Origin: a virus
DNA: 64,000 bases
Virus genome (UHGV): UHGV-0332176
Strand: one strand, 5' to 3'
Shown here: in pieces, positions 4,498-58,890 of the stretch
How positions within the stretch are numbered: the first letter of the stretch is position 1
How the letters are laid out: each line of letters begins with the position of its first letter
Position numbers and translations under genes: made by a program
The notes under the pieces: generated by a model
Databases searched by the model: none
What the model saw: only the letters and a program-made list of their open reading frames with translations
What the model was told of the DNA's origin: nothing

Positions 4498-5016
4498 ATG
4501 ACATCTAAAGCAAAAGTTAAAGGAAATTCTTGGGAAAGAGAATGTGCAAAAGGTTTAAGTAAAATTTTTGGATATAATTTTGAAAGATGCAAAGGTTCTG
4601 GGGCATTTGTCGGTGGGAAAAATAGTATTAGAAAAATTAAATTATCAGAAACACAATTAGTTTCATCAATGGCTGATATTATTCCGCCAACAGAAATGAA
4701 GAATATGGTCGTTGAATGTAAATTTTATAAAGATTTTCCATTTTATATGTTTTTACAAAATAAATCTATTCCTTTAATTGATTCTTGGATTGAACAACAA
4801 TTAGATGTTGTTGATGATATGAATTTTTGGTTTATTGCATTTAAAATAAATCGGGTTGGGAGTTATATAGTTATCCCTGAAAAAATATGTAATTTTATTG
4901 ATGATAGAATTGGAAATCATTCAATATATTATTATAATAATGAAAAATATATTGTTTCTGAATTTTTCCCATTTATAGAATTATATAAAAATGAAATATT
5001 AAAAAAGTCGGCTTAA
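4498..5016 (+). CDS. hypothetical protein, possible Hjc/PD-(D/E)xK-type nuclease
   Basis: GNSWERECAKGL...ADIIP...VVECK resembles the E...D...E-x-K pattern of Holliday-junction-resolvase-like nucleases. This is a weak call. Confidence 0.45.
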   Translation: MTSKAKVKGNSWERECAKGLSKIFGYNFERCKGSGAFVGGKNSIRKIKLSETQLVSSMADIIPPTEMKNMVVECKFYKDFPFYMFLQNKSIPLIDSWIEQQLDVVDDMNFWFIAFKINRVGSYIVIPEKICNFIDDRIGNHSIYYYNNEKYIVSEFFPFIELYKNEILKKSA

Positions 5017-5027
5017 ATACCGACTTT
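5004..5027. terminator. bidirectional hairpin shared by convergent genes whose stop codons overlap
   Basis: aaagtcgg / ccgacttt 8-bp stem flanked by A-run and T-run. The + gene stops at 5014-5016 and the - gene stops at 5013-5015. Confidence 0.5.
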
Positions 5028-55904: not shown

Positions 55905-55931
55905 AAAAGAGGAGCAAAAGCTCCTCTTTTT
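55905..55931. terminator. bidirectional rho-independent terminator between convergent genes
   Basis: aaaagaggagc / gctcctctttt 11-bp stem with an aaaa loop, with an A-run on one side and a T-run on the other. Confidence 0.75.
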
Positions 55932-58890
55932 AATCATTTATACCCCATTTGATATTATCAAGATTTCCATATAATTGTTTTAAGAACCATCCAAATTTTT
56001 CTTTTGTTATTCTAACAGCATCTTCAAAATCTTCATCAGGTGAAATATATATCCATATTAAAACTTCATTATTATCACATAGTGTCCCTGCTATATCACC
56101 ATCAACGTCAAAATCATTATTAATAACACCGTGGACAGCTTCATCAGCATCCCAAATAAATAATGTTTTATTAAATGAATTGTAAAAAAATCTAAATGCA
56201 CCATATGCTGTTTTTGAAAAAGAATTTTTTATCCATTCAGCAGAAGGATTTTTCCAAATAGTTAAATATTTATTTTCTTCTGTCCAATCATCATAAAAAT
56301 CACCTTTATAAAAAATTGATTCGTTAATTTGTTTATCTTTATATATGTTATAAAGTTTTAATCCTGATTCTTTTGGCAATTCATTATATAATGAAAATTG
56401 ACCAACTTTAAATTCTGTATTTCCATCTTGTGAAACAATAAACCATTCTTTTCTTAAAGTTTTAATATCTGGTAAAATATATCTATCTTTATTATAAAGA
56501 ATAGCAACAGGTATATCTACATTAGGTTCTTTCCTTTTAACAGAAGCAACTCTATGTCTTCCTTCGTGATTTGTTACAATAAGTTTTTTATTTTTTTCAT
56601 CAACATCAACTTTTAAAAATGGAATACCATATGGTTTTCTTTCATCAATTTGTTTATCAAACCATTCATCATCGCCATATGAATATTTCGGACAAAGTTT
56701 TAAAAATTGAAATGGATACATAGTAGCAAATAAATTATGACCAATTGTTGCAGGAACATTACCTAATGCATCCATATTATTTTGCCAATTAACATTTCCA
56801 TACCAAGATGATTCATTAATTGAATTGTCCCACATTTTATGTAAAGTTTTATAAATCAAATTTATTTGATGTTTATCAAATTTCCATAATTTATTAATGT
56901 TTTCATCTGCCCATTCAAATGGAGTATTACCATATTTTTTAGACATTGCACACCAATCAGCACACATTTCAATTATTGCATCGTCAGGCATTTTGCCACA
57001 AACATCAGGTATTTGACCATCGTGTGTCCAAGATTTATCCCAAAATTGAGAATGATGAGATGCTTGCTTATAATGTTTATCTTGTGTATTTTTAAATTCT
57101 TTCCATTCATTAGGATTTAATGATTGCTTACCTATCACAAATCCTTTAACATATGGAATAAACATATCAGGTTTTAATTTATCTAAATCGTGATTTGGAT
57201 AATTTTTTCCAACTTTAGATGCATAATAATTAACTAATTGACGATGTTTAGCTAATATTTGTAAAAATTCTTGTTTATCTTCTTCTGATACAATAGTTTG
57301 ATTATATTTTAAATTATTTGATTCATCTAGTAAACCTAAATCGTCATCGGCATATAATTCTTCCCATTTTTCTTTTGGAATAGTATTTGTAGAATTATCT
57401 TTTGAATTATATCCTAATTTATTAAACCAATCACTAAATGTAAAACCCCAAATATCATAATCATTTTTTCTAAACATTACATTAGCAAAACCATCTCTGA
57501 ATTTTTTATCAACTGGATAAATGTATCTTCTAAAAATATCATCGTGAGTTCCGTAATATGCATCCCAAACATAAATATCATCATTAAAATGAGGACCAAC
57601 AATTGCTCTTAATTGTTTATTCTTGGAATTTTTTAATAAATCATTAAATTCTTTTTTAGTAGGATTTTTTAAAATAGTGAAAAAAACGTCATCACCTTGT
57701 ACATCTTTCCATTGAGTAGCATAAAAAAGACTTTCTTCTAAAAATCCATTATTTTTTAAATATTGAGGAATTAAAGTATTATAATAATTAAAAGTTTTTT
57801 TAAAATCTGATATTGCATCAAATTTATTACATTCATAAATTTTACGATAAATTTTATTTTGTGTATATATGACTATTTCAGATGATTCATTGATATTATT
57901 TTGTTGATTTGTATGAGCAATATCTTCTTTTTTGAAAAAACGCTCATCATAAATAGGATGTTTTATATCTAAATCAAAAATATCAATATTTAATATTAAT
58001 GATGAAATAATATCAGTATCACCAGTTTCGCTTTCCACTCTACAATATTGGTCTCCATCTTTATCTACATTGACAGCTTTAACAATCCATTTAATATTAT
58101 TTTCATCTATATATGCCATACCTGGTTCAAATTCAATATAATCATTATCAAACATTACACCAGTATTACCAAATTCAGATTTTCTTTTAACATATCCTTC
58201 ATCTAAATTTCTTGGTTGTTTTTTTATTAAATGAATAAGTTTATTATCTAAAATTGCAACATTATTTGTTCCGCCTTCAGTTAATAAAACTGAATTAAAA
58301 CTTTTTTTAATAATATCTAAATATTGTTCTGTAATTTCCCAATTATCAAGAAAATTAATATCATCATTTTTAAAATCCATCCAAGAATTATAATAATGAA
58401 TATTATACATATCATCATAATATTTAATTTTACCAACTTTTGATTCAAGCCATTCATAATGTGACTTGCTTGATAAATCAAAACAGTTGGATAAATCTAA
58501 TTGGGCAATATAAACCCATTTTCCATATTGTTCAGCAAAATTAATATCTGAAGACCAAAAACTTGGTGTTTTAAATTTATTAATATTATTGACGGGTGAA
58601 CCGTGATAATATACGTTAGAATATGCTGTTTCAAATATTGGTCTGGCAATTATTTTTACATAATCATTTTCAAATACTAATGAATTTTTAACATTTTCAT
58701 TAAGATTTTTAAAAGATTCTGATAAATTTTGAGGTTTATTAAATTGAATTTTTTGACAATTTTTTTTAATATCATCAAAAGAAAACCAATTTAATATGTT
58801 ATTATTATTTAATAATATATTATTATTTTTAATACATTCTACAATAAAAATTTGATGACCAAAACGTATTTTGTTTCCGACTTTTAACAT
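55930..58890 (-). CDS. large ART-like paralog family protein (986 aa), likely late-expressed virion/injected protein
   Basis: YYHGSPVNN...PSFWSSDINFAEQYG...KKSFNSVLL block. NPTKKEFND motif shared with ORF 5013. A TATAAATA late-promoter motif lies upstream. Confidence 0.6.
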   Translation of the reverse strand: MLKVGNKIRFGHQIFIVECIKNNNILLNNNNILNWFSFDDIKKNCQKIQFNKPQNLSESFKNLNENVKNSLVFENDYVKIIARPIFETAYSNVYYHGSPVNNINKFKTPSFWSSDINFAEQYGKWVYIAQLDLSNCFDLSSKSHYEWLESKVGKIKYYDDMYNIHYYNSWMDFKNDDINFLDNWEITEQYLDIIKKSFNSVLLTEGGTNNVAILDNKLIHLIKKQPRNLDEGYVKRKSEFGNTGVMFDNDYIEFEPGMAYIDENNIKWIVKAVNVDKDGDQYCRVESETGDTDIISSLILNIDIFDLDIKHPIYDERFFKKEDIAHTNQQNNINESSEIVIYTQNKIYRKIYECNKFDAISDFKKTFNYYNTLIPQYLKNNGFLEESLFYATQWKDVQGDDVFFTILKNPTKKEFNDLLKNSKNKQLRAIVGPHFNDDIYVWDAYYGTHDDIFRRYIYPVDKKFRDGFANVMFRKNDYDIWGFTFSDWFNKLGYNSKDNSTNTIPKEKWEELYADDDLGLLDESNNLKYNQTIVSEEDKQEFLQILAKHRQLVNYYASKVGKNYPNHDLDKLKPDMFIPYVKGFVIGKQSLNPNEWKEFKNTQDKHYKQASHHSQFWDKSWTHDGQIPDVCGKMPDDAIIEMCADWCAMSKKYGNTPFEWADENINKLWKFDKHQINLIYKTLHKMWDNSINESSWYGNVNWQNNMDALGNVPATIGHNLFATMYPFQFLKLCPKYSYGDDEWFDKQIDERKPYGIPFLKVDVDEKNKKLIVTNHEGRHRVASVKRKEPNVDIPVAILYNKDRYILPDIKTLRKEWFIVSQDGNTEFKVGQFSLYNELPKESGLKLYNIYKDKQINESIFYKGDFYDDWTEENKYLTIWKNPSAEWIKNSFSKTAYGAFRFFYNSFNKTLFIWDADEAVHGVINNDFDVDGDIAGTLCDNNEVLIWIYISPDEDFEDAVRITKEKFGWFLKQLYGNLDNIKWGIND

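Follow-up and report, generated by a model that had tools for sequence, protein, structure and literature searches.

ADP-ribosyltransferase domains in four modular, polyvalent-type proteins of an uncultured gut jumbo phage

To our knowledge, T4 Alt is the only ADP-ribosyltransferase (ART) for which packaging in a phage head has been shown experimentally. The much larger class of ART domains that polyvalent proteins contain, listed in Pfam as ART-PolyVal, is a purely computational prediction. In the classification of Iyer et al., these polyvalent-protein ARTs belong to Tox-ART-HYD2, with a His in strand 1, a Tyr in strand 2 and an Asp in strand 5, whereas Alt, ModA and ModB are placed in another clade, Alt/VIP2, with an R-S-E active site (PMC5512222). 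The same authors proposed an injected role for the class, modelled on T4 Alt, and a zincin-like metallopeptidase as the processing enzyme of polyvalent proteins, a common theme of the class and not a universal one (PMC5512222). Here we analysed a window of 64,000 nucleotides (the whole stretch of DNA under study) from the virus genome UHGV-0332176, in which an earlier reading of the sequence alone, hereafter the original prediction, had seen five paralogues as a candidate Alt/ModA/ModB-type set of injected effectors. We label these proteins P1 (5013..7070), P2 (7649..9403), P3 (32202..32963), P4 (34546..35946) and P5 (55930..58890). P1, P3, P4 and P5 carry ART domains of the ART-PolyVal/Tox-ART-HYD2 lineage, one each at or near the N terminus, and no other open reading frame (ORF) qualifies, so that the ART family of the window has four members. 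With a probability of roughly 60%, these are four modular proteins of the polyvalent type that probably modify the host, most of them delivered with the virion.

ART domains by profile and structure prediction

The original prediction had placed all five proteins in one family by a shared block. All five ORFs exist as described and four of them (P1, P3, P4 and P5) share their N-terminal ~120–200 aa, but P2 is no member: it reached 0.2% in hhalign and lacks the second and third motifs. The quoted motif strings were all found, although they had been listed in an order different from that of the coordinates: YHGS..YFTTNYNQAKSYA belongs to P4, YRGY..IWTTDD to P3, YYHGS..FWSSD to P5 (aa 94–115), IHRT..YFSSKDD to P1 and SWCTGG to P2. 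As a three-part motif (an [YI][HR]G-like element, then aromatic-[FW]-[STC]-[ST]-x, then [GS][YF][DN][SG][AIV][LIY][LY]), the pattern occurred at the correct spacing in exactly 4 of 109 window ORFs (P1, P3, P4 and P5), whereas 200 residue-shuffled proteomes contained no instance of it; this motif was loosened and fitted post hoc, and the real test lies in profiles and structure. Pairwise BLASTP and phmmer comparisons of all window proteins against each other were blind to the family, detecting no paralogy save a weak P3–P5 signal, and motif spotting alone is therefore insufficient.

P1 matched ART-PolyVal (Pfam PF18760, ‘ADP-ribosyltransferase in polyvalent proteins’) over aa 36–193 with 69.2 bits (E = 8e-19), above the gathering threshold of 31.2 bits, and P4 fell just under that threshold (aa 7–117; 29.7 bits, E = 1.3e-6); P3 and P5 gave no match to this model at E ≤ 1. 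The P1 domain as query retrieved 27 homologues; a precomputed PF18760 assignment exists for 26 of them, two also have the PARP catalytic family PF00644, and a custom profile made from these P1 homologues scored P4 at 32.3 bits. Profile–profile comparison by hhalign with a 28-sequence ART-PolyVal profile then linked all remaining members to an ART family, as the original prediction had expected. P4 reached 97.3% (E = 1.7e-11); the P5 block went from 86% alone to 95.1% (E = 2.9e-8) when the orthologue from a sister phage, described below, was added; and the P3 N terminus, at 64.5% when aligned with five close homologues, rose to 94.2% (E = 1.1e-7) once a 40-sequence family obtained by exhaustive HMMER search was used. 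The alignments of P3, P4 and P5 were all collinear over 103–133 columns and superposed the YHG[ST]/YRG element, the [FY][FW][ST][ST] strand, the A..Y helix, G[FY][DN][GS] and the last hydrophobic strand. In addition, the hidden Markov model (HMM) of the P3 family retrieved P4 (E = 1.8e-6), and PF18760 was matched by 12 of 30 P3-type members, every other Pfam family being matched by at most one.

For P3, the weakest member of the set, an AlphaFold2 model of aa 1–122 built on a 30-sequence alignment reached a pLDDT of 95.9; an earlier model of full-length P3 from nine sequences had left this domain below 50, and the larger alignment rescued the confidence. The predicted structure shows an ART fold, the absence of which the original prediction had named as evidence against itself, and it lends strong support to the ART reading. 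RES toxins (ParT, MbcT and Xre-RES) were the best fold matches. Identities to these and to diphtheria toxin/PARP domains are only 9–18%, however, the window proteins have no Pfam RES or PARP match, and, in contrast to RES toxin genes, the genes studied here lie in a phage structural-gene cluster with no antitoxin-like neighbour (Xre, ParS or MbcA).

One further candidate, 39245..39769 (phmmer E = 0.0024), was ruled out by HMM and hhalign. A word-index homologue search with the P5 block yielded a single near-identical match, tblastn of P4 and P5 yielded none, and PDB sequence searches with P1, P5, the ART-PolyVal alignment and an alignment of the NPT module introduced below gave no true match; NCBIfam likewise returned nothing.

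The suggestion of an undescribed set of proteins did not survive these results: the class is that of the ART-PolyVal/Tox-ART-HYD2 polyvalent proteins, described in 2017 (PMC5512222) and represented in Pfam, so this is no new kind of system. What is new is its occurrence in an abundant gut jumbo phage, the dispersal over four genes, a partner module (NPT/WDA-H) and a junction linker, as well as two divergent sub-families missed by the Pfam model, one with Arg for His and possibly a relocated acid. We regard the assignment as a well-supported annotation of a known class, whose function is a prediction for the family as a whole.

Conserved and altered active sites

In the family alignment, the position of P1 H46 is conserved in 26 of 28 sequences and that of D168, the Asp of GFDG, in all 28. 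The His-Tyr-Asp triad is intact in P1 (H46/Y71/D168) and in P4 (H8/Y24/D94), and both proteins are most likely active NAD+-dependent ADP-ribosyltransferases. In P5, H96 is retained, F111 takes the place of the Tyr and N199 that of the Asp, and D214 lies past the next strand. P3 has R5 for the strand-1 His, W24-T25-T26 in strand 2 and N93 at the Asp position; in the model, N93 sits right before strand 94–99, the canonical place of the catalytic acid, and D109 comes after the strand that follows N93.

The P3 pocket residues are strongly conserved. Across 30 P3-type sequences, Y4, R5 and W24 are each present in at least 29 and T26 in 25, while positions 93 and 109 read N/D in 19 sequences, D/N in seven and D/D in none. 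This swap suggests that one acid is always retained in the pocket and has shifted to the adjacent strand. The D/N sequences may, however, form one clade, in which case a single evolutionary event could account for the pattern. P5 has the same N...D arrangement (N199, D214), and either protein may be active through a displaced acid or may be a non-catalytic binder of NAD or ADP-ribose. A set of 1.8 billion clustered proteins contains 46 representatives of the P3 Arg-type domain, nearly always at the extreme N terminus.

Modules, junction linker and a sister phage

The four ART proteins are modular, with at least six modules in P5, at least three in P1 and at least two each in P3 and P4. From its N terminus, P5 comprises an N-terminal region, the divergent ART-like block, INES, an NPT/WDA-H module, DUF5662, INES, a module with the string NHEGRHR, INES and an NPS/WDA-H module. 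The ATG start of P4 at 34546 is backed by gene calls on public contigs. The proteins and their parts are as follows.

5013..7070, minus strand: P1, 685 aa; ART-PolyVal, NPT/WDA-H module and ~355 aa (PF18760, phrog_21376)
6450..7043, minus strand: ART-PolyVal domain of P1, aa 10–207
6120..6479, minus strand: NPT/WDA-H module of P1, aa 198–317, NPTKKEFND ... IWSADTPLLH
32202..32963, plus strand: P3, 253 aa; divergent Arg-type ART, linker and NPS/WDA-H module
32202..32567, plus strand: ART-fold domain of P3, aa 1–122
32583..32627, plus strand: junction linker of P3, INEVLKIAGVQINES
32625..32954, plus strand: NPS/WDA-H module of P3, aa 142–251; confident model with no known fold match
34546..35946, plus strand: P4, 466 aa; ART-PolyVal at aa 1–120, acidic stretch, linker IDEVLKRAGIQINEE at aa 155–169 and ~295 aa
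55930..58890, minus strand: P5, polyvalent protein of 986 aa
58201..58632, minus strand: divergent ART-like block of P5, aa 87–230 (hhalign)
57364..57738, minus strand: NPT/WDA-H copy 1 of P5, aa 385–509
56845..57270, minus strand: DUF5662 of P5, aa 541–682 (Pfam PF18907, 60.7 bits)
55936..56286, minus strand: NPS/WDA-H copy 2 of P5, aa 869–985 (hhalign, 85% to copy 1)

The string NPTKKEFND, which the original prediction had noticed in both large proteins, is indeed common to P1 (aa 217–225) and P5 (aa 409–417), but it does not mark a second, tandem copy of the ART block: it lies in a separate module that scored 0.1–0.3% against the ART profile in hhalign. The remainder of P1 and of P5 was also searched for a second ART copy, and neither holds one. 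This NPT/WDA-H module of ~110–125 aa follows the pattern NP[ST]xx[EW] ... lR ... [IV]W[DS]Axxx(x)H and is present in four copies, one in P1, two in P5 and one at the C terminus of P3. Between copies, hhalign gave 85% for the middle against the C-terminal copy of P5 and 63% for P5 against P1, the latter over 18 columns, a short but specific match. Models of the module have a pLDDT of 70–93, and comparison with PDB, BFVD and Pfam yielded no significant match. It recurs beside an ART domain both in the sister phage and in a P3-type homologue, P0062, in which the module precedes the ART. Pfam searches with eight isolated modules (that with NHEGRHR, a string that may be ParB-like, the P5 N terminus, the remainders of P1, P2 and P4, and the NPT modules) gave nothing significant. 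Homologues of P3 recombine both of its halves with DUF5662, with the NHEGRHR module of P5, with a GNAT domain and with a 180-aa insert. One of these, P0007, fuses the initial 44 aa of a P3-type domain to a GNAT acetyltransferase domain (PF00583) and is either a truncated ART or a recombinant.

Modules are joined by a linker with the consensus I-N-[END]-[VI]-L-[KR]-x-[AS]-G-[VI]-x(1-2)-[LI]-[NDE]-E-[SEA], or more strictly I-N-E-V-L-K-x-A-G-V-Q-[IL]-N-E-S, which is present in P3, in P4 and at the very C terminus of P2. Of the 31 family members that reach 150 aa, 16 have the linker in full. P2 ends inside the linker, with IQEVLKLSGVNL followed by its stop codon (7647..7690, minus strand), and this stop shares 1 nt with the ATG of 7080..7649 (TAATG); it is as though a polyprotein had been divided at a junction between modules. 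The core [IL]NES occurs five times over all window ORFs, only in P2, P3 and P5 (p ~5e-5 for random placement by length). INES at aa 333, 691 and 855 of P5 coincides with module boundaries derived independently from homologue breakpoints, and the P3 site does likewise. The DNA identity of the three in-window linkers was not above the level expected from amino-acid conservation, and there is therefore no direct sign of recent recombination. Prohead proteases of T4-like and giant phages all cut after Glu, and the SPN3US protease gp245 favours Ser at P1′ (PMC5694885, PMC10052503); we therefore propose the [IL]-N-E|S junctions as maturation sites. By this analogy, the junction linker may be a cutting site for a prohead protease.

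A sister phage (ENA ERZ28614026; scaffold of 171 kb, other contigs up to 263 kb) encodes, beside its CCA-enzyme gene, a protein of 1,736 aa (L002:4786-9996) composed of a P5-like N terminus, five canonical ART-PolyVal copies, a P0005-like module and an NPT/WDA-H module. Its N terminus is 43% identical to P5 over 238 aa, with the same FNS variant and a divergent ART block, and it contains [IL]NES-type junctions such as KLNES at aa 745–749. The gene is followed by one for a DUF5662+NPS protein and then by the CCA-enzyme gene, the same synteny as in the window. P5 thus represents a cut-down form of a classic polyvalent protein, and the window phage has its canonical ART copies in separate genes.

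The window also encodes a Macro domain protein (47089..47550, plus strand; PF01661, 27 bits at a cut-off of 22). Its gene is conserved in the sister phage (L002:19773-20243), in a block with RNase H, PTH2, an HD-domain protein and the CCA-adding enzyme. This protein is a possible ADP-ribose ‘eraser’ or reader beside the four ART-fold ‘writers’.

Gene context and proposed role in infection

The window has 24% G+C and a coding density of 96% under the standard code. A megablast search with 20 kb found no near relative among 50,697 GenBank phage records. Two public human-gut metagenome contigs of 284,303 bp (ENA ERZ27244982 k141_166858) and 284,250 bp encode an identical P3 protein (32202..32963) with the same neighbours, which makes the window a portion of the genome of an uncultured jumbo phage of ~284 kb. 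It is common in human-gut data, where 464 indexed data blocks contain one protein of the set. By PHROG and Pfam annotation, the neighbouring genes form a T4-like mixture, with a helicase, SbcCD, an RNA ligase, at least five DNA methyltransferases, ClpB-like, DnaJ-like and Hsp20 chaperones, a CCA-adding enzyme, the Macro domain protein, a gp25-like baseplate wedge protein, a baseplate hub protein with lysozyme and several ‘virion structural proteins’.

The genes of P1, P2 and P3 lie directly among virion genes, listed here together with the promoter-like site at the head of the gene block that includes P4.

9403..9792, minus strand: gp25-like baseplate wedge gene, first gene of its operon (phrog_261/975/43)
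7649..9403, minus strand: P2, 584 aa, no ART, no Pfam or PHROG family
7080..7649, minus strand: 189-aa gene separating P2 from P1, ‘virion structural protein’ by phrog_14467 (E = 1.5e-9)
31001..31510 and 31520..32200, plus strand: two virion-structural genes (phrog_12928, E = 7.5e-22; phrog_13138, E = 2.9e-30)
33356..33383, plus strand: sigma-70-like promoter match, TTGACA-16-TGnTATATT, 11/12, a consensus match only, the best in 30.5–36.5 kb

P1 had been said to follow the gp25-like gene directly. It is in the same operon, but two genes stand between them, the minus-strand order being gp25-like gene, P2, 7080..7649 and P1, with overlaps or gaps of 1–9 nt. P2 aa 59–230 resemble EST35_0205 of Pseudomonas phage PA5oct (tblastn E = 6e-9), a ‘structural protein, ESI-MS/MS’ that mass spectrometry detected in virions, and P1 has a match in crAssphage, the ‘RNAP associated protein fused to zincin protease’. 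P3 starts 1 nt past the two virion-structural genes at 31001..32200. P5 is preceded by the late-promoter motif that had been reported for it, TATAAATA at 58926..58933 on the minus strand, with 35 nt between motif and ATG. Nine of the 19 copies of TATAAATA fall in the 4.4% of the DNA that is non-coding, and eight are sense-oriented 5–35 nt before a start codon. The motif stands upstream of the starts at 4498, 15730, 39830, 48027, 51934, 58890 (minus strand) and 61694 (minus strand). Being concentrated between genes just upstream of starts, it behaves as a T4-type late promoter would, in a phage that lacks a close T4 relative. Its one-mismatch form AATAAATA lies 30 nt ahead of the gp25-like ATG (9792) and 34 nt ahead of 31001. 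The gp25 operon, the virion-structural neighbours and the late-promoter motif fit packaged, host-modifying proteins analogous to T4 Alt, in line with this part of the original prediction. P4 is placed differently, directly upstream of a DnaJ-like/ClpB-like pair in a block headed by the gap before 33420. Because the sigma-70-like site heads this chaperone gene block, P4 may be an early, non-packaged enzyme, a parallel to ModA and ModB in timing only.

Several other features of the gene set are of interest in their own right. At least five DNA methyltransferase genes stand in a row on the plus strand (14970..15713, 16362..17255, 17332..18150, 18147..19007 and 19019..19606), two of the run being weakly paralogous; this suggests heavy self-methylation against restriction. 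Between the SbcD-like (9875..10900) and SbcC-like (12814..14973) genes, also on the plus strand, lie an ORF of 174 aa and a ‘dehydrogenase’ of 375 aa (phrog_9582, E = 2.6e-108). A phage-encoded proteostasis set (1825..2355, 36313..39263 and 55368..55904) includes an HslV-like peptidase, a DnaJ-like protein and Hsp20, together with a ClpB-like double AAA+ ATPase of 762 aa. No tRNA genes were found within the window.

We propose the following scheme. P1, P3 and P5 would be made late with the virion genes, packed in the head and delivered along with the DNA. Inside the head, a prohead protease would cut after Glu at ...A-G-[VI]-Q-[IL]-N-E|S and so free the modules. The delivered proteins would then ADP-ribosylate host proteins at the start of infection, which amounts to the job of Alt in T4 done by another ART clade. 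P4, behind its sigma-70-like promoter, may instead act early and unpackaged.

The original prediction had gone further and proposed these proteins as candidates of the Alt/ModA/ModB type; as a family relationship, this would make them R-S-E ARTs homologous to those of T4 and expanded here. Such a relationship would suit the gp25-like baseplate gene in the operon, given the reported association of Alt-family genes with baseplate genes (PMC5512222), as well as the strand-1 Arg and strand-2 Thr-Thr of P3 and the late-promoter-like motif ahead of P5. Yet strand 1 has His and not Arg in P1, P4 and P5, the Alt/VIP2 Pfam family is unmatched by any protein at E ≤ 1, tblastn found no T4-like phage, the E-x-E motif is missing at strand 5, where P3 has Asn, and the P3 family is itself tied to ART-PolyVal through Pfam and hhalign. 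We consider membership in the Alt/Mod family highly improbable, and the similar lengths of P1 (685 aa) and Alt (682 aa) a coincidence. A different departure from an Alt-like reprogramming of host transcription deserves more weight, namely that the ART-fold domains degrade NAD+ or counter host defences. RES toxins, the anti-CRISPR AcrIF11 and DarT are examples of such activities. On this reading, NAD+/ADP-ribose signals would be depleted or intercepted by the domains, or host defence proteins or nucleic acids would be ADP-ribosylated. Here the Arg of P3 is typical of RES-like sites, RES and AcrF11 are among the fold matches, the Macro domain protein (47089..47550) occurs in this phage and in its sister, and polyvalent proteins have been proposed to act against restriction and signalling defences (PMC5512222, PMC7824862). 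A similar fold does not reveal the substrate, though, neither the window proteins nor the 30 family members have a Pfam RES match, and the profiles link all four domains to the protein-modifying HYD2 clade; we hold this reading to be unlikely.

Somewhat less likely again is a mostly non-enzymatic role, in which the ART-like folds, at least those of P3 and P5, are degenerate scaffolds for binding or assembly within virion structural or ejection proteins. The replacement of the catalytic Asp by Asn in P3 and P5, of His by Arg in P3 and of Tyr by Phe in P5 would be expected of such scaffolds, as would the embedding among virion-structural genes; against it stand the full triads of P1 and P4, the P3-type pocket with Y4, R5 and W24 kept almost throughout and T26 in most members, and the presence of almost always exactly one Asp at positions 93/109, although the D/N set may be one clade. 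In the opposite direction, the P3 Arg-type domain (YRG ... W-x-T-D-D ... GY[ND] ... [FL][DN]) could be a distinct ART lineage missed by Pfam, with its catalytic acid relocated to the neighbouring strand and a different chemistry or target (RES-like NAD+ breakdown or a non-protein target), within a gene set that would work as a cassette system whose modules are shuffled between genes at the linker and then freed from polyproteins through prohead-protease cleavage at [IL]-N-E|S in the capsid, to be injected as a cocktail of effectors. We regard this combination as speculative and unlikely.

The reading that we prefer, modular polyvalent-type ART proteins that modify the host and are mostly delivered with the virion, itself faces a number of adverse points. 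Half of the set may be inactive: the strand-5 Asp is missing from both P3 and P5, as are the His from P3 and the Tyr from P5. In the literature searched, ART-PolyVal is named by two papers only, neither of them experimental. The case for packaging of P1, P3 and P5 is drawn from gene context and analogy; the window contains no gene for a prohead protease or a major capsid protein against which the cleavage motif could be checked, and Pfam, NCBIfam and PHROGs revealed no zincin-like peptidase domain in any of the five proteins. The P3 copy of the NPT/WDA-H module is weakly homologous to the others (5–13.5%, compared with at most 1.6% for every other window ORF). As for the promoters, TATAAATA is rarer in the window than expected from shuffles (19 copies versus 35.5), AATAAATA at two operon heads is a weak late-promoter signal in DNA of 24% G+C, and sigma-70-like sites are not enriched (64 versus 58 in shuffles).

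Compared with known systems, the set comes closest to the ART-PolyVal/HYD2 polyvalent proteins. P1 lies above the Pfam threshold, P4 just short of it and P3 and P5 are remote relatives by profile–profile comparison; disparate modules are combined in one polypeptide and recur in variable combinations; the genes stand next to virion genes, as the contexts of P1, P2, P3 and P5 illustrate; and the 1,736-aa protein of the sister phage resembles the multi-copy examples in PMC5512222. Unlike those examples, the proteins here come from four genes (253–986 aa) with a single ART copy each, lack the zincin-like peptidase domain and share a lineage-specific junction linker, and the P3 and P5 sub-families go undetected by Pfam, with Asn for Asp in both and Arg for His in P3. 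With Alt, ModA and ModB they share the ART superfamily fold, several paralogues per phage, a set in a late or baseplate-linked context beside a possibly early P4, and a proposed modification of host proteins at the start of infection, but their clade is H-Y-D and not R-S-E, they have no detectable sequence relationship to the T4 enzymes and they are multi-module proteins. They also resemble ejection and cargo proteins, such as the E proteins of SPN3US and phiKZ, crAss-like cargo proteins and the cyanophage A4 pre-ejectosome protein gp28, in being large, multi-domain and encoded among virion genes, and the possible cleavage after Glu recalls head maturation in SPN3US, phiKZ and T4; this likeness is, however, confined to single domains.

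The four proteins offer a compact test set with two canonical H-Y-D domains, two divergent ones, a partner module and a candidate protease junction. If true, the scheme would show how multi-effector polyproteins are assembled and dismantled. If the proteins are injected and active, they would extend the Alt paradigm to another ART clade in gut jumbo phages.

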